A stretch of DNA of 47,068 nt from a virus (Duplodnaviria; Caudoviricetes). Made by a program: the position numbers and the translations under genes. Position 1 is the first letter of the stretch, and every line of letters begins with the position of its first letter. Shown one piece after another: positions 2,077 through 32,903 of this stretch. The notes under the pieces were generated by a model. That model was not told the DNA's origin. It saw only the letters and a program-made list of their open reading frames with translations, and did no database searches. Where the stretch lies: positions 1 through 47,068 of IMG/VR virus record IMGVR_UViG_3300037722_000249. The stretch is one strand, 5' to 3'.

Positions 2077-3191
2077 CCATCAACAACATCTCCATTCTTA
2101 GGTTTTACTGGCGCAGTTTGCTGTGGTGCCACCGACCGTGGAGGCATCTCCAGCCTCTTCTTGGGAGACTGCGTAAGCTCGAAGTATCGGTCCAACTCCC
2201 CGGAATCTACGCGATCGTTCCACTTCTCCACTGCCCTGGATGCAATGTCGCGACGCAGCTTGGACATGCGGATGAGGGTTTCTTTGTTCAACGGCGTAGT
2301 ACCCGTCATCACGTTGCGCAAAAACTCTCGCTCAGCAGGAGTGTCCAGGCCACGAGCGCCGATGCCCAATGCTTTAATCATCGGGAACACGTCAGAGCCG
2401 AGCAGGGCATCAAGCAACTCTGTGTCGCTCACCTTTTTGCCGCTTGCCTCGTCCTTCATAACTAACTGCTTCGCCCTCTCTAACGAGAGCAGAAGCTCAG
2501 AACCCATGCCGGTAATGGCTTCTGATGTCTGAAGGTGATTCAGCACCATATCCAGCTTGGCTACGTTGTCGATAGCCGCAGTTGCAGACTCGTGCTGTCC
2601 AATGTCCCTTTCCGCGCTCTTGGTCCCGACTACCTCAGCGTATTTGTTGCCGGCGAGGTTGACGGGAACCTTGACCTGAGTTGCTCCAGACTTGGCTAAC
2701 TCACGAGCGTAGTCCTGATACGGGACATTCGCTTGCGGTCCCTGTGGCCCCATATTGAACGGCTTGTTGGGGTCCTGAAGTACCTGACCTGGCTGAACTC
2801 TGAATGGATCAAAGATCTGCCCGGCAGGCCCGACAGACATCGGCCTCGCAGGAACCAGGTCGGCCGGGTTCTGGGTCTGAGTGAACCTGGCTACCGATTC
2901 TTGCGTGTAGTCCTTTGGGTTGATCTTGGAGAATGGGTTTTCAGGCTGCGGCGGCTGTTGCATCTTCTGTATCTGGGCTTGCATGAACTGCTGCTGTAGG
3001 TTGCCAAGCTGGGTGTCTTGATACGTCTGCAGGCCCTGTTGCCCAGCCTGGCCAAAGATATTCCCCACAGATTGGGGCAGGCGCGACGGTCCGCTACCTG
3101 CCATCATCCCAAGACCAGTCTGCAGCAAGGCCGCATTAGTCGGGTCCAAAATCCCGTTTGGCATACCGCTAAGGATTCCGTTCATAGCCAT
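2019..3191 (-). CDS. Putative DNA ejection protein
   Basis: Gln/Gly-rich N-terminus, C-terminal GDVVDGWEFIGGDP..NW motif, podovirus synteny. Confidence 0.6.
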   Translation of the reverse strand: MAMNGILSGMPNGILDPTNAALLQTGLGMMAGSGPSRLPQSVGNIFGQAGQQGLQTYQDTQLGNLQQQFMQAQIQKMQQPPQPENPFSKINPKDYTQESVARFTQTQNPADLVPARPMSVGPAGQIFDPFRVQPGQVLQDPNKPFNMGPQGPQANVPYQDYARELAKSGATQVKVPVNLAGNKYAEVVGTKSAERDIGQHESATAAIDNVAKLDMVLNHLQTSEAITGMGSELLLSLERAKQLVMKDEASGKKVSDTELLDALLGSDVFPMIKALGIGARGLDTPAEREFLRNVMTGTTPLNKETLIRMSKLRRDIASRAVEKWNDRVDSGELDRYFELTQSPKKRLEMPPRSVAPQQTAPVKPKNGDVVDGWEFIGGDPSNRMNWRRKK

Positions 3192-3895
3192 CCACCAAGG
3201 TTCATGCCCGGAGTCATTCCAGTCCCCATCCCGAACGGAGCGCCGCCACCAGCACCACCGCCACCGAACATTCTTCCCATGCTCGCGCCGGTCAATGCGC
3301 CGCCGAGCACTCCCCCAGTGGGGTTGTTAAAGTATGGCTGAGTTTGCTGCGAGCCCCACCCCTTCAAGAGATTCGAGTATTGATTAAAGGGAGCGAAGGC
3401 CGAACCAGTTCCGCTAGTAGCGAAGTCAGGCCCGGCCGCCGTTGCGCCGAACTGGCGATTGCGCTCCTGGTTGTAGTTGTTCCCGTAGAGGTTGGTGGCA
3501 AAGTTACCCAGCGAACGACCCAGCGCCTGGTTGGCGCCCGAGTTACCCCCAAACGCTTGCATATGGCCGAAGCTGGGAGACATCGCTCCCCGGATCTCAT
3601 TCGCTCCCTGCTGGAAGGTCTCTTGTAAGAAAGGATTAGACCTCGGGTCGAGATACTGACCCTGAATGGTCTTCATCATCTCGTCCTGAGAAGCCCCCAC
3701 AACAGGACTCTGCCCCTGACCGGCCTGCTGGTTGAACATAGGCTGAGCCTGCCCCAGCATTCCGGTTACATACGGTTTTAACCAAGCAGGGATATCATTG
3801 ATGGTCGTGGTTGTTCCTGCCTGCTTGGAGCCTCCCATACCACCCAAAAGCCCGCCAGCCAAGCCCCCCAGCGCCATCATCGTCATCGGTTCCAT
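3182..3895 (-). CDS. Putative ejection/pilot protein
   Basis: Gly-rich hydrophobic termini (ALGGLAGGLLGG), Gln/Asn-rich core, position after tail genes. Confidence 0.6.
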   Translation of the reverse strand: MEPMTMMALGGLAGGLLGGMGGSKQAGTTTTINDIPAWLKPYVTGMLGQAQPMFNQQAGQGQSPVVGASQDEMMKTIQGQYLDPRSNPFLQETFQQGANEIRGAMSPSFGHMQAFGGNSGANQALGRSLGNFATNLYGNNYNQERNRQFGATAAGPDFATSGTGSAFAPFNQYSNLLKGWGSQQTQPYFNNPTGGVLGGALTGASMGRMFGGGGAGGGAPFGMGTGMTPGMNLGGWL

Positions 3896-6461: not shown

Positions 6462-7836
6462 ACCTTAGCCTTAGCTTTGTTGTTAGTTCTTCTAGAGGCC
6501 ACGTTCCATCCTTGGCCTGGCGAAACATCTTTACCGATCGATACCACGGCAAATCGTCGCCCTTCACACCGTAGAAAAATCGTGGTTTGTTAGGAGCGAT
6601 GCACCAGCATTCCTTGCCCAAAGCACCTGACAGGTGAACAACCGCAGTCGTTACCGATACAACAAGATCCAGCTCAGCCACCAGGCCGGCGGCATCGTCG
6701 TAGTCCTGTGCTCTTGTGGCCCTTGGATAATCGAGGATCTTGATGCCATGCTCCAGTTCAAGCTCCTCTATTTCTTCTGACTTGTCCTTGTATTCCAGGC
6801 TCACCCATGTTGCGTCGATCGACTTGAACAACGGTAGAAACGCCTCCAGCGGAAGGCTTCGCTTGTTGCTACCTGTGATCTTTAACCCGCCACTCCAGGC
6901 AATTCCTATTACCGGCTTCTTGAAGGTATCGAACAAAGCCCTCCACTGAAGCCTTCTCTCCGGATCGGCCTTTAGAAAAGGCGTCCCAGGAAAGTCCTCA
7001 TCTTTCTCCCTGAACATGGCGGGGAGACAATCAGAGGCGATGGAGTAATCAATTTGGTGGTCCCACTCCCTCTCATTTACGAATCTGGTTCCGTAGACCC
7101 TTGCTTCCGGGAAGGACCTTTTAAACAACCCCGCCAGCCGAGCATCGCAATCTATGATGATGTCGGCTTTCCTAGAGGCATCTGGGATGCAGGAGGCAAA
7201 CGCTATTTCGTCTCCTATACCCTGGTTCCCATACACGACTACAGAGCCAGACTCCCCATTCCACATCGGCTCCTCAGGGTCGTTGTAGGTCCGGATCTCC
7301 CTCTGTTTAGTGGTCCCGACAGTCTCCCTGTATAGCTTCCAGCCCGACCAATCGCGCTTCATGAGAAGCGCCATAGCCCTAGTATCTTTGGAATCGAGAC
7401 TAGATTTTCCTATCTGGTCAACCTTCGCCAGCCACTTCAAAGCTTCTTCCGGATGACACCTGTTCACGCTTATAAGCGCCAGGTTTTCCAGTGCCTGGTA
7501 GTAATTGGGGTTCTTCTTTAGCGCCTCCTTGAAACAATCCTCTGCAGCATCAAGATCCCACGTCTCCTGATGGCACATGCCCATGTTGTTCCACAGCTCA
7601 GGTTTAGATGGGTTTAGCTGCGCCGCCCTTCGGAAGATGTTGTACGCCAAGCCGAATCTTCGGGTCTTCATGAGGGCGTAGCCGATGTAGAACAACGCCT
7701 CCGCATTCAGGAAGTCGAGACTTAAAGCGTCTCCAGCTAGCTTGATACCCTCCTCGTATCGCCCCTCTTTTATTACCTCCCCGGCTAGCTTTACGTTCCT
7801 AAGTGAATCTTGTTTGTCGTTTTGAGATATTTCCAT
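6400..7836 (-). CDS. TPR-repeat glycosyltransferase (GT-B, GT9/heptosyltransferase-like C-terminus)
   Basis: N-terminal TPRs (AEALFYIG, PELWNNMG, YQALENLA); C-terminal GNQGIGDEI, IGIAWSG, LDLVVSVTTAVVHLSGALG, PWYRSV. Confidence 0.8.
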   Translation of the reverse strand: MEISQNDKQDSLRNVKLAGEVIKEGRYEEGIKLAGDALSLDFLNAEALFYIGYALMKTRRFGLAYNIFRRAAQLNPSKPELWNNMGMCHQETWDLDAAEDCFKEALKKNPNYYQALENLALISVNRCHPEEALKWLAKVDQIGKSSLDSKDTRAMALLMKRDWSGWKLYRETVGTTKQREIRTYNDPEEPMWNGESGSVVVYGNQGIGDEIAFASCIPDASRKADIIIDCDARLAGLFKRSFPEARVYGTRFVNEREWDHQIDYSIASDCLPAMFREKDEDFPGTPFLKADPERRLQWRALFDTFKKPVIGIAWSGGLKITGSNKRSLPLEAFLPLFKSIDATWVSLEYKDKSEEIEELELEHGIKILDYPRATRAQDYDDAAGLVAELDLVVSVTTAVVHLSGALGKECWCIAPNKPRFFYGVKGDDLPWYRSVKMFRQAKDGTWPLEELTTKLRLRYGDLDVCGATNRLHELASSR

Positions 7837-8135
7837 TCCGGACTATTTAGCAGTCTGAAAAGTAACTTCGAATTCCTGGGGTGCATCGGCCAGTCTTCAA
7901 TTCCGTATTCGGTAAGCCATCGCAACTGAATCACTATAGGAATAAAAGAGTAATGCCACAGCTCGTTCTTGATGCCGTTCTTCGTATAGTCGTCGTCGTT
8001 CCTGTGCTCCGCGTTCTGATCGAGGATTGGCTCTACGTCCTGAATGGTCTCTATGTGAGAGTCGCCAGTCAGGTTGTCGTAATGGAAGATCTCCGTCACC
8101 CCAGTTAAAGGGTCTCGGTCGAATAGTCTTTTCAA
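7791..8135 (-). CDS. Conserved hypothetical protein downstream of the capsid gene
   Basis: QDVEPILDQN, IP.VI..W, LNSPEW.YLKT motifs; TTG start at 8135 is inferred. Confidence 0.6.
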   Translation of the reverse strand: MKRLFDRDPLTGVTEIFHYDNLTGDSHIETIQDVEPILDQNAEHRNDDDYTKNGIKNELWHYSFIPIVIQLRWLTEYGIEDWPMHPRNSKLLFRLLNSPEWKYLKTTNKIHLGT

Positions 8136-8166
8136 AGGAACAAGGGAGGGGTTGTTGGCCCCTCCC
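8133..8166 (-). terminator. Possible intrinsic terminator after the major capsid gene
   Basis: GGGAGGG-CCAACAAC-CCCTCCC hairpin followed by TTGTTCCTTT on the - strand. Confidence 0.4.
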
Positions 8167-8174
8167 ACCCTTTA

Positions 8175-9152
8175 CTAGATGGTTCCGTCTACGCCGGCAA
8201 GCTTCCCGGAAGCCGCCTCGTTCCTAGAAACGAGAGTGAGTTCCGCCAGAAGATGCCACTTGTCGGAGTCGCCGGTTTTCGCCAGCTTTTCCTTCGTCAC
8301 ACCGCGAAGCTGTGCGACCGCCCAATAGTCCATGTCCAGAAGGTGAACCGTCCGGTCACGGCTAAAGCGGCTTGGCACAACCAAGTGTTCCCCGAAGTCC
8401 GAGACATACACGTCAGCGCCACCGATGATCCTGGTAGCCCTCGCGGTATTACCGGCCTCTTTGGTAACGTCCGCGATACCCACGAAGCCAGAAATGCGCT
8501 TCTTGGAGTTTGGACCGACAAGAACGAGCCTCGGGTCTCCGCCTGCCGTCCAGATCTCCGAGATAACGTTCTTGAGGTCGGTTTCTGAAAACGATCCCAA
8601 GTGCGTCTTCTCGGTGCCAGCCGTTACAAGCGTACCGTTCCAGCCCCCGGAGGTATAGGCCCCCGTACCTGAAGACTTGTTCGTGTGGTTCGTGGAAAGC
8701 CACGATTCCACCGATGCAAGTTTCCGGGCAGAAGCCGCGTCACCAATTTCCGTCCCTTGGTTCTGAGTCAAAGCGTATTCGATATCACGCTTCAGCTCTT
8801 TACCGCGCTTCATCAGTTGGTAGGCGATCTCCGAGTCCCTTCCGGCCTTGTCAACGGTTTCCTGAGTTCCAGAGACCTGGATGGTCTTCTTGAAAATCTG
8901 GGTTACGTTGGAAAGGCGGGTGGTCGGAACTGCGGTGTCTACCGCCGAGTCATCGCCCTCAATGTGGGCGTTGGCAGCAGCGGCGGCGAGAGCATCGGTC
9001 TGCCACTCATGCGTACGAGCTTTCGCCTTGACTCTCGGCGCACGGGAGACAAAAGGCGTCTCCATAGGCGAGATGTTGAAAATGGCGTCGGTCAGGTCTT
9101 CCCTGTTGCCGATAGCCTGGTAAGTCTGGAGAGTTCCAGAAGGTACAGTCAT
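8175..9152 (-). CDS. Major capsid protein (DUF5309/SU10-like)
   Basis: GNREDLTDAIFNISPMETPF, HEWQTDAL, TQIFKK..VSGT, ELKRDIE, LAKTGD motifs; follows the scaffold. Confidence 0.88.
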   Translation of the reverse strand: MTVPSGTLQTYQAIGNREDLTDAIFNISPMETPFVSRAPRVKAKARTHEWQTDALAAAAANAHIEGDDSAVDTAVPTTRLSNVTQIFKKTIQVSGTQETVDKAGRDSEIAYQLMKRGKELKRDIEYALTQNQGTEIGDAASARKLASVESWLSTNHTNKSSGTGAYTSGGWNGTLVTAGTEKTHLGSFSETDLKNVISEIWTAGGDPRLVLVGPNSKKRISGFVGIADVTKEAGNTARATRIIGGADVYVSDFGEHLVVPSRFSRDRTVHLLDMDYWAVAQLRGVTKEKLAKTGDSDKWHLLAELTLVSRNEAASGKLAGVDGTI

Positions 9153-10864: not shown

Positions 10865-12409
10865 TTATGCCAGTTCTTCCGTACGGATTATCCGACCCGT
10901 GCCGTCATAGGGCTGAGTGCCTGCCACATCCTTGTAGGTCTGCGCCGAGAAAAGCGGCGTCGTGCCATCCGCGTCGTAGATGGTGAATATGCCGGTCGCC
11001 GGGTCAAGGACGCGCTTACGTTGTAGGAGGAATTTCGCGTTCAGGACTTCCGTCAACGTGGGCCCTCCTACGCTGAAATCAGCGATGACGTAGCCGGCTA
11101 CAGACACGCCATCGACGGTCCCTGCTGTCATGACCAAAGCGTACCTCGTAGAATTTGTATATCCGTTCGCGCTCGAGGCCACTACTTCCACATTGTTAAG
11201 TCCAGTGCGCCCGTCAAAATCAACAGCAAGAGTAATTCCGGCTGTTATCTCGGTAACACTATTCCCTGGATACGCAGCAATTGCACCACCAGTCAACGCG
11301 CTTGGCAGCCCAGATGAATTTCTAGTGGTGAACTTAATGTTCAACGTGTCTCCTAACCTGATGTCTCCTGCTGGTATTCCTATTACGATGCGAGATTCGA
11401 ATCCAGCACCCCCAGCCCCGGCGGTTACGGTCGGTGCAAACGTGGTGATGGTCAACGCCGCAGTGCCGGGCGTGACCGTCCGGTGATCTGTAGCCGACAC
11501 AGTTGCTGCAAATGTCTCCAACGTAAGTGCGGCGGTGCTCGGCGTTACGGTGACGCCTGCGCCACCAGTTACGGTAGGCGCGAAGGCTGTCAGCGTCAGA
11601 CTGGCGACACCCGGGGTAACCGTCTGATGTGCTGTCGAAGTTACCGTAGGGGCGAAGGTCGCCAGTGTCAGCGCCTTTGTGGACGGTGTTACTACCTGAC
11701 CGGCGCCTCCCGTTACCGTAGGTGCGAACGTGGTCAGAGACAGAGCCGCCGTAATTGGCGTGACCGTCTTGTGATCGCTCGACGTGACAGTCGGTGCGAA
11801 GGTAGTAAGCGACAGCGCCTTCGTCGTCGGCGTGACGACTTGGTTCTCTGTGGCGGTAACAATCGCTGCGAAGGCAGTGATTACTAGCGCCGCTGTAGTC
11901 GGCGTAACAGTGACGTTCGCGGCCGCAGACCACGCGCCGATCAGTTTGTCATTCGCGCCGTTGACGCTGATCGTGAGCGTCTGGTTGCCGTGGCTCGCTG
12001 CGCGAGATGCGCTAAGCACGCCCACCAGACGGTCGCCAGCGTTCGTCGTGATCGGCGAACCGATGGCGACTGTATGCGACTGCGGCCCGGTGCCGATCTT
12101 CGTGCCCGACGTGCCAAGCGTCTGCTGCAGCGTTCCCGCCGAGTTCACGCGGCGCAGCGACAGCGTGTAGGAGATGTCCGCGCCGGTGGCGTCGATGTCG
12201 CACGAAACCGTGTAGTCGCCAGCCGGCCATTGGGCCAGATTCGGAACGCTCGGCTCCGTGTACCACGCCGCCGATCCGGTGCCGCCGCCAGCCAGCGTAA
12301 TGTCGAGGCTCGTCCCACCTTCGGCCGCGTCCAGCGCCTTCTTGTTATGGACCGTACCCTGGCTCGTGAGGCCAGAATTGGTGTCGGTGAGAACGAAGGT
12401 CGTAGCCAT
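10865..12409 (-). CDS. Thr-rich repeat fibre/decoration-like virion protein
   Basis: 514 aa; seven 24-aa repeats; C-terminal TIYDADGTTPLF motif; lies in the head module. Confidence 0.65.
   Translation of the reverse strand: MATTFVLTDTNSGLTSQGTVHNKKALDAAEGGTSLDITLAGGGTGSAAWYTEPSVPNLAQWPAGDYTVSCDIDATGADISYTLSLRRVNSAGTLQQTLGTSGTKIGTGPQSHTVAIGSPITTNAGDRLVGVLSASRAASHGNQTLTISVNGANDKLIGAWSAAANVTVTPTTAALVITAFAAIVTATENQVVTPTTKALSLTTFAPTVTSSDHKTVTPITAALSLTTFAPTVTGGAGQVVTPSTKALTLATFAPTVTSTAHQTVTPGVASLTLTAFAPTVTGGAGVTVTPSTAALTLETFAATVSATDHRTVTPGTAALTITTFAPTVTAGAGGAGFESRIVIGIPAGDIRLGDTLNIKFTTRNSSGLPSALTGGAIAAYPGNSVTEITAGITLAVDFDGRTGLNNVEVVASSANGYTNSTRYALVMTAGTVDGVSVAGYVIADFSVGGPTLTEVLNAKFLLQRKRVLDPATGIFTIYDADGTTPLFSAQTYKDVAGTQPYDGTGRIIRTEELA
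11408..11911 (-). repeat. Seven degenerate 72-bp (24-aa) tandem repeats, consensus xVTPxTAALxLTTFAPTVTxxxxx
   Basis: Visible in the translation of 10865..12409. Confidence 0.9.
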
Positions 12410-15412: not shown

Positions 15413-15572
15413 TATTTTTATTCTTAGAAAGCCGTGCGTTGAGCATGCGGTACTTGTTCTCTAGTTCCTTGAGCCTGACTTCCACCCCCAAAACAGGACC
15501 AGCGGAAGTTTTCGAGAGTTCATTGACCCTATCCTCCAGGGCTTTGATCCGCTTCAGCATCGCCAAGCTCAT
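15372..15572 (-). CDS. Small coiled-coil hypothetical protein
   Basis: ATGA coupling to the upstream glycosyltransferase. Confidence 0.55.
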   Translation of the reverse strand: MSLAMLKRIKALEDRVNELSKTSAGPVLGVEVRLKELENKYRMLNARLSKNKNNAETDGNRASGST

Positions 15573-16189
15573 TTCCAGTTTTCCTCTATCCAGTCGGCTT
15601 TAACGTCCGTGAGCTTCGGAAGACCATGGAAACAAACGATGGACGTGTCTTCAGGAAGACCGCTCACGCAATGAAACTTGTAGGACTTGATGGTTTCCAT
15701 TGGCAAGTGGTCAACCCTTTGTCTTAGCGAATCCCATATAAATGCCTGATCTCCCAGGTAAGGACCGTCCCTCTTTTTCTCGTGGTAATCGATCCATTTA
15801 TATGGCTTCTCGCAGAATCTCAGGTACACCCTCTTTAGCGGTTTCCTGAACCACATCACCCCGGACCCCACAAACGAGGGAACGTGGAAATTGCTCAGCA
15901 TCGCAAAGTCCATGTCCAGATTCGACAGGTGATCCAGGCTTCCGGTGACTACCGTATCGAGGTCCAGATAAAGGGTGGGACCGTTTACCACCCTGAACAG
16001 CTCGATCTTCGACCACCAGCCCGGCCAGTTATGAACTAGTGGGATTCGTTCGCAGGGGACATCAACATCCGAAAGGCACTTGAACGTATGGGGAACCGTT
16101 AGATTCCTCGCTACGCCATCCCTTAGTTTCCTGACCCACTCAGGGGTGTATTCCTCTCCGGTCCTCAGGACACAAAGAACCGTCAGCAT
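15569..16189 (-). CDS. GT-A fold glycosyltransferase
   Basis: DxD motif YLDLD, GWWSKIELF, GDQAFI, CFHG.PK. Confidence 0.8.
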   Translation of the reverse strand: MLTVLCVLRTGEEYTPEWVRKLRDGVARNLTVPHTFKCLSDVDVPCERIPLVHNWPGWWSKIELFRVVNGPTLYLDLDTVVTGSLDHLSNLDMDFAMLSNFHVPSFVGSGVMWFRKPLKRVYLRFCEKPYKWIDYHEKKRDGPYLGDQAFIWDSLRQRVDHLPMETIKSYKFHCVSGLPEDTSIVCFHGLPKLTDVKADWIEENWK

Positions 16190-16722
16190 ACAAAGGCGCA
16201 GCGCCTGTATTTTTGCGCCGCAGATATCACAACGCCCCTTGGTTTTTCCTTCTCTATTCTCAGGTCTGCTATGCAGAAGCCTTTGACTTGGTAGGTACTA
16301 AGTGGGTAGTGAAATCCCCAGGAGAGCAGAGAAATCACCAGGTCAGACTGCAGTTCCTCTTTTGTTCCTACCTCGTGCCACTTGTCGCACTCGAAACCGT
16401 TTGCCTTCAGAAGAGCATCCGTAGCTTTACGGGAGTTGCCTATCGTGCTGGTGAACCCGTAACTTCCAATCCCCCCATCGCCATCAAGTAATTCGAGCCT
16501 GGCATGGGGAAATTTACGCTTCAGTAAGACATCAATTCCCGCCATGCCGCAACCGATGTCCAGTATGGATTCGACCCTATCCGGTAGGTAGGGCTCGATC
16601 ATCCGGAAGTCGTGTTCGACGTTGAAGCCGTCAGGCCGTTGCAGTTTTATCCAGCACCAGCATTCATCCGGTACTACTAATCCTGTCGCGGATATCAGGC
16701 CACTTCTCCCGTAACCACACAA
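16183..16722 (-). CDS. SAM-dependent methyltransferase (start uncertain)
   Basis: Motif I ILDIGCGMAGID; DLVISLLSWGFHYP. Confidence 0.75.
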   Translation of the reverse strand: MCGYGRSGLISATGLVVPDECWCWIKLQRPDGFNVEHDFRMIEPYLPDRVESILDIGCGMAGIDVLLKRKFPHARLELLDGDGGIGSYGFTSTIGNSRKATDALLKANGFECDKWHEVGTKEELQSDLVISLLSWGFHYPLSTYQVKGFCIADLRIEKEKPRGVVISAAQKYRRCAFVC

Positions 16723-17284
16723 GGTAAGCTTTTCGATCCGCCGGCATAGGTGGGCGTTCCATGTACGTCTTGTCCGGCGGCATCCTCCCCTTGTTCACAT
16801 GCTCGTGTGAGACCATTACCTCGTCAAGCCTCTTGCACCCGAATTCCTTGGCTATAAGCTCGTTAACGTCGTCCAGGTAAAAATGCCTCAGGTCCGGACA
16901 CGCAACCCACCCCAGCTTTCTAGCGAAGTCCCCACTCATCACTGGTGTGGATATGCGGTCGGCGTAGTTGTCCTGGGGCCATACTAATGGGCCTTTAAGA
17001 GCATCTACCAGCCTCGTATCCCAGTTCTCGGTCTTCGGTAGGTGGTCGTCATTCAGGACCCCATACCACGGCTCATTAGGCCGGTATCTAAATCCTTTAT
17101 TCAACTTGCCGGAGAGAAAGTCCCTCCTGAAAACGACCCTCTCCCATTTATCCGGGAGTCTTACCTTCTCGTACTGAGTTGAATCGTCGTGGCACAGAAT
17201 CAACAACCCGGGCGTTTGAAAGTTGCCCTTGTCGAACAACCTCTGTGCCAGGTGAGGTCGTCCCCTACTGGGTAGCAGCCACAT
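16664..17284 (-). CDS. GT2-like glycosyltransferase
   Basis: LLPSRGRP N-terminus, LNDDH (xDD), HFYLDD, HEH. Confidence 0.7.
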   Translation of the reverse strand: MWLLPSRGRPHLAQRLFDKGNFQTPGLLILCHDDSTQYEKVRLPDKWERVVFRRDFLSGKLNKGFRYRPNEPWYGVLNDDHLPKTENWDTRLVDALKGPLVWPQDNYADRISTPVMSGDFARKLGWVACPDLRHFYLDDVNELIAKEFGCKRLDEVMVSHEHVNKGRMPPDKTYMERPPMPADRKAYLVWLREKWPDIRDRISSTG

Positions 17285-17912
17285 ACACCGATAGATAATC
17301 CAAGGGGTCTAAACTGGTAGATGGCTTATCCACCCACTTTTTTTCTTTCGTGCTCCAAATAGCCAAATCTTGGATCTCCAACCCAGCCATCTCGCACATT
17401 CTCTGAGCTTCTTTAATGGTGTAGACGCGATGGAAATTCCCGACTCTTACGGGCAAATCCCCGTCCACCACTCCACCAAACGTAATTGCTCCAACTGCTC
17501 CGGGCTTCATCACCCTCTTAACTTCGCAGAGCATCTTCTCGTCACCATCCTTGACTATGGGGTCTCCATACCTCCCCAACCCAACATGAGTGAGGACACA
17601 AGCCGAACTCACCGCATCGAACGAGCTATCGGGTATCGGCATTGAGCTTGCATCGGCTTGGATGAACCTCGAGAAACCATGCGGGGGTTTCCTGATATCC
17701 AGGTAAGTTACCTCCCACCCGATCCTCTCAAGCGCAAAAGCCTCGAATAGCGGAGATCCAATGACGAGACAAGATCCCTTCCCCTTCCCAAGGTGCTCTA
17801 CAGCAAAGTTAGTAGAGGCCACGTACCAATGATCCTTGGAGGGGTGTTTCCCTTGCCACGGCGAGTTCACAGACCCAACATCTGGTGTTTCTACAACAAG
17901 CTCCTGCCTCAC
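17265..17912 (-). CDS. SAM-dependent methyltransferase (DUF268-like)
   Basis: LVIGS, YLDIR, QADA..MPIPDSSFDAV, HVGLGRYGD, RVMKPG. Confidence 0.75.
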   Translation of the reverse strand: MRQELVVETPDVGSVNSPWQGKHPSKDHWYVASTNFAVEHLGKGKGSCLVIGSPLFEAFALERIGWEVTYLDIRKPPHGFSRFIQADASSMPIPDSSFDAVSSACVLTHVGLGRYGDPIVKDGDEKMLCEVKRVMKPGAVGAITFGGVVDGDLPVRVGNFHRVYTIKEAQRMCEMAGLEIQDLAIWSTKEKKWVDKPSTSLDPLDYLSVYVAATQ

Positions 17913-18307
17913 GCTCTTATGCGCTCTATCAAAGATGTCGTCGTAATCGGAAGCGACGGAAGGTAAATGCTAGGAATCCCCAGTTCGCTTAGGACTTTGT
18001 CCTCTGGCTTTGGAACGCCTCTATACTCCTCCCCTCGCATCCACACATTCGGATGCACAAGGCCAATGTTGTGGATGGGTGTCTCGTCCTTAGTCAGCAG
18101 CACGTTATCAACTACCCGCAACGCCAAGAGAATGACCATGCGCTCACCCTGCGGCACAATCGGGCGTCCCCTCTTGGAGATAAAGGCATCTGCCACCAAA
18201 GAAACCACCAGTCTTTCGCAATGCTCCTTCGCTCTTTTCAGGTGCCATAGGTGCCCGGCATGGAAAAGGTCGAATACGCCATGCACCATCCCGACTTCGT
18301 ATTTCAC
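17909..18307 (-). CDS. Cytidylyl/adenylyltransferase (HldE domain II / TagD-like)
   Basis: GVFDLFHAGH (HxGH), KRGRPI..ERM, TTTSLIERI. Confidence 0.85.
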   Translation of the reverse strand: MKYEVGMVHGVFDLFHAGHLWHLKRAKEHCERLVVSLVADAFISKRGRPIVPQGERMVILLALRVVDNVLLTKDETPIHNIGLVHPNVWMRGEEYRGVPKPEDKVLSELGIPSIYLPSLPITTTSLIERIRA

Positions 18308-19446
18308 GCAAGAAAGTTGACGTTGGCTGGTGCCTGAGTGATCGGGAACGTCACCTTGCCATCGAGATATCTATAGAGCCAGTCGTTGGTCAGGTTCTGC
18401 ATGCAATCCGATGGACAGCGTTTACGGGGGTCAAACTCGTCAGATGCTATGTAGCGCATGACTTCCCAATAACGCTCACCGTGGAACATATCCTTGAATC
18501 TCTGGGTCGTGATGTTGCCGATGTGGAAGGCTCGCCACTTCTCGTTGAATAGCGGCCCGCAAGGGGCGATAAGGCCATTTCCCGACATCTGCAGGGCAAA
18601 TGGAGGGCCAAAACACCGCGAGTACTGTCGTTCCCCTTGGTGCTTCAGCTTGTTCCACTTGACTACGATCTTTGTATTTTCGTCGGACAGCGCCTCGCAC
18701 TCGAGCAGCGTTTCCTCGATTCTTCCATATCCCTTGTAGTCCACCTTGAGAATGCCGTCCATGTGGGTGTCCACCCAGCAATGCTTGATGATCGCATAGT
18801 GAACGCCCAGATCCTTGGCAAGTCTCGCAAACGGCAGCAACTGGTCGGACTGGTCGGGGTCGCACACCAAATTCATGTTTGTAATGCACGGCCAGTTGTT
18901 GTCTCGGACAAGTCTTACTGCCGTTCTTATGTTGCCGATCACGATGTCATAGACCGCTTGTTTCAGGCCCATGATCTCGGCGTAGCGCTTTTTTTCTCCG
19001 GCTGAGAAGTTGACCCTAAAAGACGAGAGTCTCGGTAGAATTCGCTCAAGTACCGGCTGCGTAGTGGCGATGCCGTTTGTTCCTACTCCGATAGCTATTC
19101 CCAGGTCGGTCGCCTTTTCTACTGACTCGGCATACCACGGAACCATAGTCGATTCGCCGTCAGAGATGTAGTTCATTGCCAGAACACCGATCTCTGCGGA
19201 ATCCTCGAGGAACGCCATCGCATGATCGCGAGTGATGACACCACCCTCCGAGGCTTGAGTCTGAGCCGCGCAGAAGTAGCACGCCGCCTGGCATTTCCTG
19301 GTCCACGCCACATCAATGAAAATTGGAGCTACGCGCTCACCGCGCGCCCAAGCCTCGACTCTTTCCCTGTGATAGCCGATATTGGAGCCATCTAGCGTCA
19401 GATCATGCTCACCTACATGGGTGGTAGTTGTGTAATCGAAGTTCAA
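18304..19446 (-). CDS. Radical SAM enzyme with SPASM/twitch domain
   Basis: CQAACYFC (CxxxCxxC), DGE, TNG; C-terminal C..P...G...PC...IGN...CPSDC. Confidence 0.88.
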   Translation of the reverse strand: MNFDYTTTTHVGEHDLTLDGSNIGYHRERVEAWARGERVAPIFIDVAWTRKCQAACYFCAAQTQASEGGVITRDHAMAFLEDSAEIGVLAMNYISDGESTMVPWYAESVEKATDLGIAIGVGTNGIATTQPVLERILPRLSSFRVNFSAGEKKRYAEIMGLKQAVYDIVIGNIRTAVRLVRDNNWPCITNMNLVCDPDQSDQLLPFARLAKDLGVHYAIIKHCWVDTHMDGILKVDYKGYGRIEETLLECEALSDENTKIVVKWNKLKHQGERQYSRCFGPPFALQMSGNGLIAPCGPLFNEKWRAFHIGNITTQRFKDMFHGERYWEVMRYIASDEFDPRKRCPSDCMQNLTNDWLYRYLDGKVTFPITQAPANVNFLA

Positions 19447-19640
19447 AGCTTATCCCGCTGTTGAATCGTCATCAGGCGGCGCAATTTGGAATCATCGCCT
19501 TTCAAGTCCTTTACCACTCTCACGTCCAGCTTGGTCAGGGTTCGCAATGTATGCTCCAGGAGCATGAGAGCAGGCCCCTGCACGTCCGTTAAAATCTCTG
19601 GCGGGAAGGTCACTACTACCTCAAGTCCTTTTTCAGGCAT
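19443..19640 (-). CDS. 65-aa hypothetical protein in the sugar cluster
   Basis: Overlaps both neighbours. Confidence 0.6.
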   Translation of the reverse strand: MPEKGLEVVVTFPPEILTDVQGPALMLLEHTLRTLTKLDVRVVKDLKGDDSKLRRLMTIQQRDKL

Positions 19641-20721
19641 GTGGAGACATCTGATCGAAGGTCACATAGACCTGTTTCCCGTCCACCATCTCGTACTCCA
19701 GCTTCGGGACTAATGTCTGTCTCGGGTTCATGTAGTACTCCAGCAAACACGCACCACCGGAATTCAACATAGCTGGTATGAGCCTTTGATAGTCCTCCCA
19801 GGTTCTTATTTCACCGGCTGTAATACCGAACGCCAAAGCAACATGCCTGTAGTTGGGAAATGAAACCCCGCTATCAGGAGCAACACCAGACTCTTTCAGT
19901 CCTGCCACTTTTTGGGTGCGGCGGATCATCAAATACCCTTCATTCCTGTAGACGATGATCTTTATCGGGAGCTTGTGATGAACGATGGTTTGCAGCTCCT
20001 GCAGGTTCAACATCATCCCGCCGTCGCAGTGCAGGCAAAGAACCTCACCCTTGTTTGTAGCGAAGCTCGCCCCTATCGCCGCCGGGAGGGCGCAGCCCAT
20101 CTCCCCCAAACCCCCGGAAGTCATGATCCTCTGCTGTGGTTTCAGCCTTAGCACCTGATGGGCCGTGATTAACGACGTGCCCATGTCGGTAACTATGATC
20201 TGGTTGGGTTTCAGGTACTTCTGCAGCCCAGAAGTGAACCTGTAGGCGTTGATATAACCATCAACGTCAGCATGAGTTGGAAATTCAAGCCAAGGGTATT
20301 TAACCGCCCAGTCCCTGCATTCCAGCATCCAGCTTGGAGATGGCTTCCAGTAAAAACTGTCTACAAAGTCCTTGGCATCCCCGGGGATCCACTTTGCATG
20401 CGGGAATTTCCTTACTTCCCTCTCATCTACGTCCACCATGTAGATGTCCTGCTTCGGGGCCTCATGCCCCACGTTCCATATCGCCATCCGATTACCGATG
20501 GCTAATATGGCTTCAGACTTGAACAGGATTTTGTTCGCTACCCTGTTGCCGTAGATCCCTGGACAACCGAAATAGTTCTCGTGGTGGTTGTCTACTAAAT
20601 CCTTGGCCTGCCAGCTCGTCAGAACAGGTATCCCAAGGCCCAAGAGTCTTTCTAGTTTCGCTCCTCTCGCCCCATGACCCAAAAGGATGACTGGCTTGCT
20701 ATACGACTTCACCCTGTACAT
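19633..20721 (-). CDS. ThDP-dependent enzyme (acetolactate synthase-like), middle and PP domains
   Basis: KPVILLGHG, G.YGNR.AN, SGGLGEMGCALPAAIGA, CDGGMMLNLQEL...RNEGY (GDG-x-NN variant). Confidence 0.85.
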   Translation of the reverse strand: MYRVKSYSKPVILLGHGARGAKLERLLGLGIPVLTSWQAKDLVDNHHENYFGCPGIYGNRVANKILFKSEAILAIGNRMAIWNVGHEAPKQDIYMVDVDEREVRKFPHAKWIPGDAKDFVDSFYWKPSPSWMLECRDWAVKYPWLEFPTHADVDGYINAYRFTSGLQKYLKPNQIIVTDMGTSLITAHQVLRLKPQQRIMTSGGLGEMGCALPAAIGASFATNKGEVLCLHCDGGMMLNLQELQTIVHHKLPIKIIVYRNEGYLMIRRTQKVAGLKESGVAPDSGVSFPNYRHVALAFGITAGEIRTWEDYQRLIPAMLNSGGACLLEYYMNPRQTLVPKLEYEMVDGKQVYVTFDQMSPHA

Positions 20722-21205
20722 CCTTTGGGATATCCACCCACACCGGCCCCATCGGGGGGGTTAGGGCGATTCTCGCCATTTCCTCCAACTCTCTTGGGTC
20801 TTTAAGCCTTATCGCTCTCTTGGTGAAGTTCTCTGCAACACCAGAGGAATCGTAACCCTGTATCCCCCAGACTATTGTGGGGGCGTACATATACTTGGAG
20901 GCTTCGTTTCCGGAGAGGATAAGGACCGGGATGCGGTCCATGTAAGCAGCCTCAACCCCGGTGATTGCATTTGTGCTTCCCGCTCCCGTTGTGCAAAGAA
21001 CCGCTGCCAGCACACCCGATGTTCTATAGAAGTAGGATGCAGCCATAACCGCAGCTTGCTCATGGTGCACGCAGACCACTTCTGTAAATCCACGCCTGAC
21101 AATCGCATCCCAGAGAACGAAATTTCCCCCACCTATGATCCCAAAAGCATGGGTTATCCCCTTGGCCTCCAGGAACTCCGCTATCTTTTCAGCTATCGTC
21201 TGCAC
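20699..21205 (-). CDS. ThDP-dependent enzyme, N-terminal Pyr domain
   Basis: FGIIGGG, HHEQAAVMAA (catalytic Glu), TTGAGSTNAITG, GPVWVDIPKDVQ. Confidence 0.88.
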   Translation of the reverse strand: MQTIAEKIAEFLEAKGITHAFGIIGGGNFVLWDAIVRRGFTEVVCVHHEQAAVMAASYFYRTSGVLAAVLCTTGAGSTNAITGVEAAYMDRIPVLILSGNEASKYMYAPTIVWGIQGYDSSGVAENFTKRAIRLKDPRELEEMARIALTPPMGPVWVDIPKDVQGEVV

Positions 21206-22046
21206 GCCAGATGGTGACTACGTTCCTGTTTACCTTGTGGTGCTCCAGGTTCTTTCTGTAAGCATCGGGCTCGCTTTTCCTGGGTAACATCCCGAGCCGG
21301 TTATCTCTAGCAGAGGTCAACTCAACTATGAAAGCCGCATCACTACCTCCAATTACCCTCTGCCTTTGCTCTTTTACGAGCATTTCCGGCCATAGGTGAT
21401 CCCACGCCCCGCCCAATTGCGCCTTCAGGAAATCCACGTCTTCCTTCTTGGGTCTTACCAGGTGACAGGTCGGAATCCTAGCCGTGACGGCATAAAGATT
21501 TGGCCCTATCTCCCTCCACCCAGCACCAGAGTCAAACGAGCTATTCATCGGCAACTCTATGTTCGAAGACTTCCACCCCTGGTGAAGGTGCTCCATCGCA
21601 AGTCTTACGAGCTTCGCGTTAGAGGTCGGTTCTTTCAACTCCGGGAAGGTCTCGGCAACAACCCTGGGATGAGGAACGGCAACGCAGGTATACGGATTCT
21701 CCGAGGCTATTTTGACCATCGTTCTGATGGTCCCCTCACCGAATATCAGATCCGGAGGGGCTACCAACAAGGCGGATTCGGTTTCCACCGCAGCCCTCAT
21801 CTCGCCGGCCAAGCACTTGACGAGATATTTTCCTATATTCCCCTGATGCTCGACCTTGTGGATTTCCAGGGGGATGCCAACAGGGCCTAAAGTTCTTCTG
21901 ACCCGATCCTCCTGTCCCGTACATACCGTCCACGTCGCACCCTCCAAAGCCTTTCTGTTTTCCGGCCAGTTGAGGGAGGCTGAGCTTCTTTTCAACCATT
22001 CCAGGTATTTATCGCCGTAAACCAGCGTGAAGATCCTAAGTTTCAC
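21189..22046 (-). CDS. Hypothetical protein, possibly GT-A-like
   Basis: N-terminal beta strand IFTLVYG, PPDLIFG motif, sugar-cluster context. Confidence 0.5.
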   Translation of the reverse strand: MKLRIFTLVYGDKYLEWLKRSSASLNWPENRKALEGATWTVCTGQEDRVRRTLGPVGIPLEIHKVEHQGNIGKYLVKCLAGEMRAAVETESALLVAPPDLIFGEGTIRTMVKIASENPYTCVAVPHPRVVAETFPELKEPTSNAKLVRLAMEHLHQGWKSSNIELPMNSSFDSGAGWREIGPNLYAVTARIPTCHLVRPKKEDVDFLKAQLGGAWDHLWPEMLVKEQRQRVIGGSDAAFIVELTSARDNRLGMLPRKSEPDAYRKNLEHHKVNRNVVTIWRADDS

Positions 22047-29312: not shown

Positions 29313-30226
29313 TTGGCTTTCTGGAATTCTTCGCCTTCAATAAGCTTGAGAGTTTTTGTCTTTTCTCCGCCTCGCCTCTTATTCCACGCCTTGAATACCA
29401 GCATCAACACAGCGCCGCGCTGCAGCTTATGCGGTGACGCCATATTCGAGATTAAGCGCTCTCGCAACCAGTAAACAGGATCACTCCCAGAAAGGCCAAC
29501 CCCCTCGAACAAGTCCAGGAAAAACCTCTCCGCATCAGTTTCTGACTTCTCAGAAAAGATAAAGTAGCAACCAGCTACCATTCCACGGCTAATGAGTTTC
29601 CCTGCCTTGATGTTTTCCGCAAAACGGACTGCAGCAATGATTCTGTCTTTGACAGGTTCGGCGAAACTAAGCAGTTCCTCCTTTGAAGCATCAGCGCTCT
29701 TAATCGGAAGATTGCCTAGCTTTTCGAGAAGCTTCTTAGAGCCCTTGACGTGTCTCCGCGAAGCACCCCCGCTTGGTTGAATCAGATTGTTCCGATACTG
29801 ATAAACGAGAAGTGCCGCTCCCGAGGCTAGATTCGCACTTGGATAGCCAGCGATATGAAAGATGTCTGCGTGAGACCTCGTTTTTCCTACGTCCACCGTG
29901 GCGAAGGCTGTGTCATCCGTGATCCCATAAACCACCAGACAACGAAATGATTTATCAGCCAAGACTGCCGCTTGGCAGCGGTGTTGACCGTCGATCATCG
30001 TTCCATCAGCCATGAACTTAATCGACTCTCCATTCTCCGACCACTTACCCTCGTCCATCGCAATCGCATAGTCCACCGCCTTTGATTGCGATAGTTTTCT
30101 GTTGATGTGCATTTTCTCCAGCCACTTTTTGGCCATAGCAGGAGTTACTGTTTCCATCACTGCATAAACGCCCTTTTGCTGGCGTAGCGCATGGACAGTG
30201 CCATTCACGTGTGATCTCCTTTTCAA
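29309..30226 (-). CDS. ParB/Srx-like N-terminal domain protein
   Basis: VTPAMAKKWL..NR, M.EGKW..NGE, IDGQHR..A, D.GK.RS. Confidence 0.7.
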   Translation of the reverse strand: MKRRSHVNGTVHALRQQKGVYAVMETVTPAMAKKWLEKMHINRKLSQSKAVDYAIAMDEGKWSENGESIKFMADGTMIDGQHRCQAAVLADKSFRCLVVYGITDDTAFATVDVGKTRSHADIFHIAGYPSANLASGAALLVYQYRNNLIQPSGGASRRHVKGSKKLLEKLGNLPIKSADASKEELLSFAEPVKDRIIAAVRFAENIKAGKLISRGMVAGCYFIFSEKSETDAERFFLDLFEGVGLSGSDPVYWLRERLISNMASPHKLQRGAVLMLVFKAWNKRRGGEKTKTLKLIEGEEFQKAK

Positions 30227-30684
30227 TCGCGTCCCGATAATGGTTTAGAAACTATCATTCTGGGTCTCTCATCCATCGCATCCGTGGTATGCGCTCGGCA
30301 ATGCTCGATAGCGTTTACCGAGCCCGTGGCAATCTGGTCGCAGTAGGCGCATAGCTTCTTCGGCTGAAAATCTTGCTTGGCAGGAATGGATCTCAGGGAG
30401 TTCTGATTCTGCTGACGGGATAGCCAGGTATTCAGGAACCTCCCATGCTGGGACTTCGGGCCTAAGTTTGGATTGCTCACAATCCAGGCAGCCGCCCGCT
30501 TTAGTTCGGACTCTATGTCCACAGCTCCGTAAGCTTCCTTCCACGCTTCCATCTGCTCTTTCGTTAAATTCGTCCAGCGACCATTTTCAAATCCAAGCTT
30601 TGGTTTCTTTCCCAACCCAGCCAGTTCTTCCCTCACCACCCTTCTTACTATCTCCTCTAACCTTGCCCACTTGTCCTCCACCAC
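30223..30684 (-). CDS. Replication protein resembling the C-terminal (helicase-loader-interacting) half of phage initiators
   Basis: W.EAY.AVDI..EL..AAAW...NP...RFLNTWLSR.Q, C-terminal CxxC..C..H; RBS AAGGGAGAAG. Confidence 0.6.
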   Translation of the reverse strand: MVEDKWARLEEIVRRVVREELAGLGKKPKLGFENGRWTNLTKEQMEAWKEAYGAVDIESELKRAAAWIVSNPNLGPKSQHGRFLNTWLSRQQNQNSLRSIPAKQDFQPKKLCAYCDQIATGSVNAIEHCRAHTTDAMDERPRMIVSKPLSGRD

Positions 30685-30689
30685 CTTCT

Positions 30690-30945
30690 CCCTTGGTGAA
30701 TCGTTGAGCTAGAAGCGGGCAGAGTCATCCCCTTACCCGCTTCATGTTCTCCCTCGGAGCCATCGCGTCGCTCTCGCGGGCAGGGACTTACGCTGTTACC
30801 CTGTCGGCCAGACTGTCCGGGATCTCGCGTCCCGCTTAGTGCGCTCTAGCCTTTCGCATCCACGCTGCGGCTGTACTGTGTTCCCCTGGTAACCGCCCTT
30901 CGACTCGCCGCGCCAAGCGTGTTATCCCCGCCCACGTCGAGCCAT
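30690..30945 (-). ncRNA. Candidate structured RNA / replication-control element
   Basis: No ORF of 60 aa or more; at least six stems, several with GNRA loops on the - strand. Confidence 0.5.
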
Positions 30946-30950
30946 TTCCC

Positions 30951-30970
30951 TGTGCAAAACCTGGTGCAAA
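30951..30970. promoter_or_regulatory. Putative integrase arm-type sites (left arm)
   Basis: Tandem TGTGCAAA / GGTGCAAA, mirrored by tandem GGTGCA at 31153-31169. Confidence 0.55.
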
Positions 30971-31052
30971 TCCCGGCAGGACGATGCTGTTTGCGCCTTT
31001 CCTGCCGAGCTGTTTAGCTATAAGCTCCTGTTCTCAATAAATGCCGAAACTC

Positions 31053-31098
31053 ATTCGTAATCAGTAGGTCGCCCGTTCGAGTCGGGCCACCAGCACCA
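31053..31098 (+). mobile_element. attP: attP core: 46-bp 3' half of tRNA-Thr(CGT)
   Basis: ATTCGTAATCAGTAGGTCGCCCGTTCGAGTCGGGCCACCAGCACCA holds the anticodon loop, T-arm and CCA but no 5' half; 16 bp from the integrase stop. Confidence 0.92.
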
Positions 31099-31104
31099 AT
31101 TAAG

Positions 31105-31117
31105 AATCAACTCTTTA
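31105..31117 (+). promoter_or_regulatory. IHF binding site in attP
   Basis: AATCAACTCTTTA is an exact match to WATCAANNNNTTR. Confidence 0.7.
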
Positions 31118-32089
31118 CGCAGCGTTCTCCTTACCCTTATCCACAGGCTGTTGGTGCACTCGTGGTGCAGATCTCCCGAGTTTGCTGACCGCTTCCCTGA
31201 GCTTTCCTACCGCCAAATGGGCGTAGCGCATCGTGGTCCTGATGTCGCTGTGGCCAAGGATCGTCCCTACCTGATACAGGTCCACGTCATTGGCAATCAG
31301 GAAGCTGGCCGCGGTATGCCTGAGATCGTGGAACCTGACCCCTGGCATGGCTTTCTCGACGGCATGCGTGAGGGTGTCTGGGTGGGCGCCGAACGGTAAG
31401 CGCTTCAGCGCAAACCTGACGTGATGGACTACGGGAACATGGCGCGGCTTCCCGCTCTTGGTTGTCTTCAAGATGATCAGGTCGTCTTGCACGTTGATGG
31501 GCCGGAGCCTGGCAAGTTCACCGCGCCGTAATCCGGTGAACGCGGCCGCCAACACAGCTCGTCTAATATTTCGTTGAGGGATGTTTCTGATAAGTCGAGC
31601 GAGTTCTTTGCGCGAGAGGAAGACTTCGCGCGCCGGGTTCTCGGGGAGGAGTTCGATTTTCTGGCCGAGCGGCACGTCCAGCCATCCCCAACGACGGTAA
31701 GCCAGATTGGCCACCCTTCTAAGAACAGAGAGACGCCGGTTAATCGTCGAGTTTGTAACCAGCCTTCGGTTCGCTTGTTTGTAGGCTTCAGCGACAGAAA
31801 CCACGTCCTGCAGGGTCTTCCCTTTGACCCATTCAGCGAGAGCACGAGCATTTCCGCAGGTGGACTTTTTTGCTTTTTGGTGGGTAACTTCTTCTTCAAG
31901 CCATCTCCCGATAGCATCCGCTAGGAGGACCGTCTTTGATCCAATTCGACTAAAACTGCCGAGGATTTCGGCCTCTTTGCGTTTCGCGTCCCGCCACGTC
32001 GCACCTTGAGGGCAGATTCGATGTACGCGCGCCCCGCCTCGCTGTACTGAAACGTGATACCGGTCTTTCTTGTCTCGCCAGACAGACAT
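31115..32089 (-). CDS. int: Tyrosine integrase
   Basis: TGLRRGE, TKSG, FHDLRH, LGH, RYAH catalytic residues. Confidence 0.95.
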   Translation of the reverse strand: MSVWRDKKDRYHVSVQRGGARVHRICPQGATWRDAKRKEAEILGSFSRIGSKTVLLADAIGRWLEEEVTHQKAKKSTCGNARALAEWVKGKTLQDVVSVAEAYKQANRRLVTNSTINRRLSVLRRVANLAYRRWGWLDVPLGQKIELLPENPAREVFLSRKELARLIRNIPQRNIRRAVLAAAFTGLRRGELARLRPINVQDDLIILKTTKSGKPRHVPVVHHVRFALKRLPFGAHPDTLTHAVEKAMPGVRFHDLRHTAASFLIANDVDLYQVGTILGHSDIRTTMRYAHLAVGKLREAVSKLGRSAPRVHQQPVDKGKENAA

Positions 32090-32677: not shown

Positions 32678-32903
32678 GATTCAGGGCCCTCTCCGGGCTT
32701 ATCCAAGCGCCTTCCTGTTGGCAGGACGTGCCCATAAACTCCAAGCCCATGTCCAATTGGGCTTGCTTCAGCAGCATCTCTCTCAGGAGCACAGCTTTTT
32801 GCTGGCCGGTGTACTTCACCCATGCGTCGATCAGATCGGCCTCGTTCTCGTTCAGCCGGATCTTGACTACGTGCTCGCGGATAAATGAGGGATCGGCGTA
32901 CAT
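32670..32903 (-). CDS. Regulator in the cII position (RHH-like)
   Basis: MYADP..IR.HVVKIRLNE.E..LI.A....GQQ.AVLLREM. Confidence 0.6.
   Translation of the reverse strand: MYADPSFIREHVVKIRLNENEADLIDAWVKYTGQQKAVLLREMLLKQAQLDMGLEFMGTSCQQEGAWISPERALNRA

Follow-up and report, generated by a model that had tools for sequence, protein, structure and literature searches.

A pseudoknotted non-coding element found beside headless replication initiators in tailed phages, and its possible role as an RNA-based origin

The DNA analyzed here (the window) is the whole of IMG/VR virus record IMGVR_UViG_3300037722_000249, 47,068 nucleotides (nt) in length with terminal repeats present. From profile searches, the phage is tailed and temperate: it has an integrase, a cI/cro-like switch, and genes for portal, scaffold, and capsid proteins. 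Read along the minus strand, the genes and sites are an xis-like gene, the integrase, the attP site, a non-coding stretch, the gene for a 153-amino acid (aa) protein, a 305-aa unknown gene, and a Dam methylase. The subject of this report is a structured element of the non-coding stretch and its relation to the 153-aa protein, termed here a headless initiator. An earlier note on the sequence had pointed to a non-coding gap in front of this replication gene, and no open reading frame (ORF) of ≥40 aa is present within 30708-31114. The 371-nt stretch folds better than its dinucleotide shuffles (z = -2.5), with 1 of 100 shuffles equaling it.

Approximately 250 nt upstream of the gene are common to five of the 12 loci (designated by L numbers) that were reached via the 153-aa protein. 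Pattern scans of viral and bacterial collections resulted in 73 distinct copies, 49 of which are below 85% identity and are used as representatives. Eighteen pattern hits failed a motif-and-pairing filter, and L183 and L198 were restored by eye. The copies make up a candidate RNA family that is new to Rfam 15 and spans temperate lambdoid-like phages, T7-like phages, Achromobacter and Verticiella prophages, and the GenBank phage MW202713, where the element is currently annotated as a hypothetical coding sequence. Rfam 15, ribozymes and introns included, has no match for the window or for 28 related loci; a known family with an unrelated role had been a concern of the earlier note. Similar DNA among GenBank phages was limited to one record, MW202713, for three queries, with none for two other queries. 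The plasmid collection returned one chance 34-nt match only, and a scan with the P2-loop pattern returned 1 member among 17 loci. The earlier note had drawn an element of ~360 bp. The stretch between the element and attP is mostly common to L001, a relative without the element, and because L001 keeps most of it, the element is ~250 nt.

By comparison of its copies, the element is a conserved, covarying, strand-specific non-coding structure with a pseudoknotted core (Table 1). The six stems named in the earlier note are all present at the positions given there. They are not the main structure, as the best-conserved part is the pseudoknot formed with the core helix P3, which was not on that list, and the CGC-GAGA-GCG stem at 30769-30778 is not generally conserved. 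Covariation, which the earlier note had proposed to check upstream of homologs of the 153-aa protein, is found among the copies in the pseudoknot, P3, and P2. Standard pairs account for each of the five column pairs that covary best: P3 and P2 contribute two each and the pseudoknot one. Beyond these five, covariation is noise. The outer pair of the pseudoknot is G-C in 33, A-U in 13, G-U in 2, and unpaired in 1 of the 49 representatives, and 0 of 20,000 permutations, which ignore kinship, were as good. For the 11 core pairs on 38 aligned rows, 418 of 418 cells are paired, while slid registers of these pairs are only 17-46% paired. Three of the pairs change on both sides and eight are invariant; two U-G pairs of the core are invariant. 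Class I members, as the copies of this element are called, were filtered for pairing at two free P3 positions. In a filter-free check, these positions are paired in 59 of the 62 pattern hits that have the upstream motif and in 2 of the 17 that lack it. The covariation alignment excludes L187 and L198, and the stem counts exclude L187. The G-rich run at the 3' hairpin is kept across subfamilies, with a pairing partner that changes (as read by eye). Long-range pairing between the linker and the 3' end scored 11.9 versus 10.9 in permutation (p 0.004), and is not claimed because several 3' anchors are misplaced and kinship is ignored.

Strand-neutral scoring counted 48 G-U pairs versus 11 A-C pairs. 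Because G-U pairs outnumber A-C pairs, the strand is fixed as the minus (sense) strand. This agrees with the strand favored in the earlier note, though the loops, which it had also invoked, are not consistently GNRA across the family. The folding z-score is lower on the sense strand in 39 of the 49 representatives. Stops in all three frames are present in 36 of 48 copies, and the core span lengths are distributed 15/17/16 across the three frames, meaning that no frame is kept. The all-frame stops and the frame-free core lengths rule out a decayed coding remnant of the initiator N-terminus, which the earlier note had considered. In Achromobacter-type relatives, the element is covered by contigs from four RNA libraries (three studies) to a depth of 3-8, with level, strand, and ends not given and DNA carry-over possible. 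Transcription of the element in relatives is thus weakly indicated.

Table 1. Locations of the element, its parts, and associated features (window positions unless a locus or accession is named)
Feature	Position	Strand	Basis
Whole structured non-coding element, ~250 nt, class I	30695..30940	-	Conservation in 73 distinct copies; ends from alignments
P1 stem, 30936-30940 with 30900-30904, closing large loop	30900..30940	-	Sequence; by-eye compensatory changes in L030, L031, L034, L035, L114
P2 hairpin, 30891-30896 with 30867-30872	30867..30896	-	≥5 bp in 47/48; third and fourth best covarying pairs
Pseudoknot helix, 30862-30865 with 30841-30844	30841..30865	-	Outer pair covaries, other three pairs never vary
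Core helix P3, 30845-30851 with 30806-30812, invariant U-G pair	30806..30851	-	Two free pairs covary (z 19, 17)
P4 hairpin within pseudoknot	30818..30834	-	≥5 bp in 43/48
P5 hairpin immediately after P3	30779..30805	-	≥5 bp in 40/48
Short conserved motif after P5, common with Betaproteobacteria-1-type loci (class II)	30756..30763	-	29/49 class I vs 3.4 in shuffles; 48/63 class II; chosen after viewing alignments
3' hairpin with G-rich run 30729-30738	30712..30743	-	Alignments
Pyrimidine-rich conserved 3' end, ~10 nt before start codon, adjoining purine-rich ribosome-binding site 30688-30692	30695..30702	-	22/49 vs 3.3 in shuffles; sequence
Predicted type-A headless initiator of 153 aa, with a helix at the N-terminus, the C-terminal domain of an initiator (aa ~25-95), and a putative Zn site (C112, C115, C129, H132)	30223..30684	-	Homology and AlphaFold model
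attP, corresponding to a tRNA gene's 3' half (by eye, Thr(CGT))	31024..31098	+	Weak Rfam tRNA match 31024-31095 + (E 0.21); adjoins integrase
Tyrosine integrase, upstream of attP and element	31115..32089	-	PF00589, phrog_1
RF02932 copies	L260:2227-2440; L261:1708-1834; L264:2475-2598; L265:369-575; RF02932-type L331-L410		
MW202713 complete initiator	L230 ~2390-3295 = MW202713.1 ~7390-8295	-	Unannotated, ~300 aa

The 153-aa protein has 180 relatives, sought only among proteins of 84-268 aa. They are mostly 150-170 aa in length with end-to-end matches, and the 120 listed are 140-198 aa. Relatives were not found in a protein scan of bacterial genomes. Larger proteins of 220-520 aa match residues ~25-95 with their C-terminal part, and several of them bear an N-terminal Phage_rep_org_N or DUF1376 domain. 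In the AlphaFold model (pLDDT 85), a helix at the N-terminus is accompanied by a beta-hairpin, three other helices, and an invariant Cys/His cluster, leaving no room for a winged helix. Because the homology is confined to the C-terminal part and the model is without a winged helix, the label of headless initiator is right, and the protein is best described, from homology and modeling, as the stand-alone C-terminal domain of an initiator. The earlier note had reached the same description. Lambdoid-type initiators (Phage_rep_org_N PF09681, DUF1376 PF07120, phrog_270, phrog_16167) share this domain; the 153-aa protein is without their N-terminal domain and repeat-rich linker and has an added N-terminal helix and C-terminal Cys/His cluster. 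Helicase-loading adaptors of the DnaT and DnaD-like kind were considered as an analogy for the initiator C-terminal domain.

Two further types of headless initiator were identified. Type B corresponds to the C-terminal half of phrog_270, with the match confined to profile positions 141 and above in 16 records, and type C corresponds to the C-terminal half of phrog_16167. The type A and type B profiles do not align (hhalign probability 0.3). Solved-structure and fold searches with types A and B found nothing above background, and the Atlas returned unnamed clusters, apart from one named lead for type B. The best fold match of type A is a sigma-factor region (Z 5.2, root-mean-square deviation [rmsd] 2.8, 71 aligned). 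Those of type B, within background, are SPP1 G39P (Z 3.9, rmsd 2.8, 57 aligned) and a DnaD domain (Z 3.1, rmsd 3.1, 57 aligned), and its Atlas lead is a Phg_2220_C cluster at 0.89.

Helicase, primase, polymerase, and initiator profiles have 0 matches among the 69 window ORFs, in line with the earlier note, which saw no helicase or primase gene; lambdoid-type systems differ from the window in this respect, as no loader or helicase profile matches in the genome. Whole-record searches with HTH_36, DUF1376, DnaB-type, and phrog_16167 profiles also gave no match, though such profiles miss divergent proteins. The earlier note saw no iterons, and no repeat family in 30223-30945 is found among the 20 largest, though short degenerate repeats could escape this search.

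A sister motif of the element is already present in Rfam. Betaproteobacteria-1 (RF02932, class II here) reportedly first came from a 224-motif screen. It is listed in Rfam as a small RNA. RF02932 is found at 85-95 bits in four headless type-B loci (gathering threshold 49.4 bits), and a scan with the RF02932-type core estimated ~620 matching stretches in the viral collection, chance matches included. The motif is abundant in phages, and it extends ~100 nt past the Rfam model. Eighty of 120 class II loci were examined, resulting in 68 distinct loci, of which five were dropped for the pairing analysis. A headless type-B gene is downstream in 21 of the 68 and a full-length gene in 0; other loci precede ParB and helicase or T7-like primase-helicase genes. 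In the remaining 63 loci the RF02932-type pseudoknot, which is not drawn in the Rfam consensus line, covaries. In both class I and RF02932, P1 encloses a large loop and is followed by P2, a short linker, and a core helix in which one U-G pair is invariant; the two also share a pseudoknot of the order X5'-Y5'-X3'-Y3' and the same gene contexts. Four short motifs, picked post hoc, are also found at matching places, 6- to 20-fold over shuffles in class I. Class I differs in having another pseudoknot helix, a longer core helix, and the extra P4 and P5 hairpins. The window has no RF02932 hit, whether the gathering score or an E cutoff of 10 is applied, and the 28 related loci are without a match. 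A sequence hidden Markov model from the 63 loci matches 0 of 49 class I copies at ≥3 bits. The covariance model has no significant single match, although the corresponding 5' part of the elements, which make up ~3% of the searched strands, received 9 of 25 weak hits (hand-counted). Class I is probably a distant relative of RF02932 and not a member.

Other structured segments were observed in these searches. A third structured-looking segment is found a few genes upstream of a headless type-B initiator in L259 (~700-930) and L262 (~2330-2580). It has no Rfam match, is directly after a cro-like gene in L262, and has a 3' end that resembles some class I copies. In L340 (~2627-2968) and L342 (~2625-3000), an RF02932-type core is followed by short proteins that resemble, by eye, type-A and fourth-type headless domains. 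L003:3630-4000 and L036:1-207 are hairpin-rich non-coding stretches before type-A headless genes and match neither class. A diverged class I or II copy was not found before L001, L003, L033, L036, L037, or L039.

A replication gene is located within ~1 kb of the element in 29 of the 49 representatives. In 18, this is a headless initiator downstream (5 type A, 12 type B, and 1 type C). In the other 11, the element is directly after a helicase-primase pair (five), ~1 kb after a helicase (one), or before a T7-like primase-helicase and polymerase (one), a loader-like gene that is a weak match at E 2e-4 (one), or RNase H-like genes (three). The ORFs scanned around loci were 101/143 and 106/244 for class I and 42/123 for RF02932-type loci. 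A class I or II element is present in 0 of 98 full-length initiator loci (redundant; flanks up to 3-4 kb). The type-B sample of 80 loci was fetched by protein and ranked by likeness to the seed, and hence is biased. Within it, none of 40 distinct full-length genes has the element. The 19 distinct headless type-B loci include 10 with class I (all of the seed clade), 4 with RF02932, 2 with the third segment (by eye), and 3 with nothing seen; L255, whose frame reads through the element, was moved by hand to the headless group. These placements strongly suggest a tie of the element to phage replication initiation. This link would provide a testable function for a large uncharacterized RNA family and for RF02932.

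By analogy with known systems, the element may be a transcription-primed origin of phage DNA replication, a reading that we favor but hold tentatively. The contexts have in common a place in the early replication region on the transcribed strand, and this holds for three kinds of replication module; a cis-acting origin fits best with it. Modules without origin recognition, such as headless initiators and primase-helicase pairs, would need a cis-acting origin. RNA-primed initiation is known from ColE1-type plasmids and a few lytic phages. For the element, the G-rich 3' part of the nascent folded RNA would stay on the template, where it would serve as R-loop and primer in a persistent RNA-DNA hybrid, by analogy with ColE1 RNA II and the lactococcal c2 origin transcript. 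The kept G-rich run, and a G-tract in L001 and L039, may suit such a hybrid. The element would act as RNA and not as single-stranded DNA (ssDNA). The hybrid would then be processed by RNase H, either from the host or phage-encoded as in three representatives, and by host restart proteins. The short downstream protein would supply only the helicase-loading half, with its C-terminal domain recruiting the host helicase. In phages that have a complete initiator, the element would be a second origin.

A broader proposal is conceivable and should be regarded as more doubtful than the origin reading itself. The pseudoknotted phage RNA superfamily of class I, Betaproteobacteria-1, and a possible third class would be an RNA-based origin in hundreds of tailed phages, the origin-binding half of the initiator would have been lost independently in at least three families, and the left-over domain together with the RNA-made R-loop would load the host helicase. 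The earlier note had suggested that an RNA replaces the origin-recognition half. Recurrence before headless initiators of three families agrees with this suggestion, but a one-for-one replacement is not supported: the element also occurs with complete initiators, helicase-primase genes, and T7-like modules and is absent from seven of 12 type-A loci. If the origin reading is true, RNA-primed initiation would be a common route in tailed phages and would explain how phages replicate that encode neither a helicase nor a primase nor a complete initiator. Such an RNA origin, small and portable, would also be useful as a vector part.

Several observations weigh against an origin. Placement beside replication genes is guilt by association, with no early-operon intergenic control, and 20 of the 49 representatives have no recognized replication gene adjoining. 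Because loci are related, the counts overstate independence. The cumulative GC skew turns at 32856, in the divergent cI/cro switch and away from the element. No consensus match to a sigma-70 promoter is found in 30150-31300; read-through into the element from an early promoter is possible. The element is missing at seven of 12 type-A loci, four of which hold ≤414 nt upstream. These include the closest relative, L001, which has a 90% identical protein and the same integrase neighborhood. The slot is occupied in L001 (3730-3995) and L039 (440-700) by a conserved G-run tract and, after it, a small conserved ORF of ~55-67 aa that matches nothing in Pfam. In Achromobacter-type prophages a winged-helix protein has a gene of its own, located two genes upstream, and in L258 a similar small gene is directly before the headless gene with no element between (by eye). 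A split protein initiator is thus possible. Four or five phages with the element (L078, L146, L108, L117, and probably L101) have a complete initiator 3-17 kb from it. By genome, the cases are MW202713, with one ~4.5 kb away, G020, with one 5.5 kb upstream, G011 and G015, which encode DUF1376 proteins 16-17 kb away, and G042, in which one is probable, together with a DnaB-type helicase. More may exist, as the initiator profiles are insensitive (of 15 positive controls, HTH_36 recovered 2 and DUF1376 recovered 1). Phages carrying both rule out strict mutual exclusion of the element and a full initiator. Because of the replacement in L001 and L039, the arrangement in L258, and the coexisting complete initiators, the slot is exchangeable and the element is not confined to headless initiators.

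This coexistence with full initiators also suits a cis-regulatory leader, in which the folded RNA would govern the downstream early or delayed-early genes, either through processive antitermination or by acting on translation of the first gene. We consider this unlikely, though it merits attention. The HK022 put RNA acts by processive antitermination. The element and downstream genes share a strand in the contexts examined, and here the element ends ~10 nt before the start codon. The downstream genes are of many types and include small helix-turn-helix and Q-like genes, the terminase small subunit, and ParB-like genes. However, the distance from the core to the next start codon varies from ~90 to >350 nt, no intrinsic terminator was found in the element region, and a leader leaves unexplained why neighboring initiators are headless in three families. 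A precedent for translational control is the ColIb-P9 rep pseudoknot, as described in the cited part of PMC6380287. Even as a regulator, the element would count as a new phage RNA, large and pseudoknotted.

The headless gene adjoining in 18 of the 49 representatives could also mean that the RNA binds the headless protein and takes over from the winged-helix domain the task of bringing it to the origin, which is the scaffold version of the earlier note. The invariant core nucleotides would suit a binding surface, and type A has its added Cys/His cluster. This RNA-protein initiator is improbable: one invariant core would have to bind at least two families without detectable profile similarity, 31 of the 49 are without such an adjoining gene, and no guide-like segment was identified.

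The position directly after primase genes in five representatives, and before a primase-helicase in one, raises the question of a folded ssDNA that would signal initiation or helicase loading to the primase and restart proteins of the host or phage. The model for such a signal is provided by ssi and primosome-assembly signals. Strand asymmetry fits a single DNA strand equally well. The two invariant core U-G pairs, the frequent G-U pairs, and the multi-domain pseudoknot would be more typical of RNA, and the RNA-library contigs of the Achromobacter-type relatives, though weak at their depth, point the same way. We regard an ssDNA signal as very improbable. Covariation cannot separate ssDNA from RNA, as stated in the cited part of PMC5737381. 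In the same part, ARRPOF, GEBRO, and PAGEV are described as structured, 223-349 nt, tied to replication regions, and undecided between RNA and ssDNA, much as the element is; they are plasmid-associated, in contrast to the element, and neither the window nor the 28 related loci match them in Rfam. ARRPOF also counts among the precedents for the proposed transcription-primed origin. The literature searched held no description of the element or of any Betaproteobacteria-1 function, though the viral structured-RNA catalogue PMC10690425 and the supplement of PMC5737381 may list the element.

HNH genes flank copies of the element in L147, L168, L225, and L078, and its presence is patchy among close relatives such as the window and L001. 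A catalytic or mobile RNA would account for these observations, either as a ribozyme-like core that processes the early transcript or as an element spreading with HNH endonucleases into the replication region. In its order of helices (X5', Y5', X3', hairpin, Y3'), the element is similar to group I P3-P7-P8 and HDV-like cores. This is the least probable of the explanations considered, as no Rfam ribozyme or intron matches, the element interrupts no gene, and the would-be group I guanosine site varies freely and pairs in another register. Group I introns are marked by a P4-P6 domain that separates P3 from P7 and by a conserved P7 pair that binds guanosine. A group I intron was rejected: the linker at the place of P4-P6 is only 5-12 nt in 47 of the 49 representatives, the guanosine-site positions vary, and Rfam has no match.

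Two described systems can be set beside the proposed transcription-primed origin. The lactococcal Ceduovirus c2 origin (PE1 transcript) is, like the element, non-coding and transcribed, its sequence or structure matters, and interchangeable types occupy one slot. Its non-coding transcript is needed and thought to initiate replication, and the origin supports plasmid replication without phage proteins, as given in the cited part of PMC7150918. The c2 origins have their own promoter and are free of phage proteins, whereas the element adjoins a headless initiator and has no promoter found; the two are compared by description, not by sequence. In ColE1 RNA II and MRB-plasmid primer RNAs, a folded transcript hybridizes to DNA and is cut by RNase H to become the primer (cited part of PMC6380287), and the element is proposed to be alike. 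RNase H-like genes follow the element in three representatives, which may be compared with the ColE1 RNase H step. ColE1-type plasmids, in the same cited part, have an antisense RNA I and no initiator protein, whereas no antisense promoter was seen for the element and the plasmid collection has no similar DNA.

Other features of the window were noted. A hairpin that pairs 31000-31012 with 30971-30981 is located between attP and the element, as is a direct repeat of short length at 30951-30970; the hairpin and one copy of the repeat are also present in L001, which is without the element. The features at 30951-31012 are possibly integrase arm sites. Glycosyltransferase-like and unknown genes are clustered at 15572-22046 between the terminase and portal genes. 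Lastly, a structural-region ORF contains a 36-nt repeat in five copies with 72-nt spacing (11424-11819).

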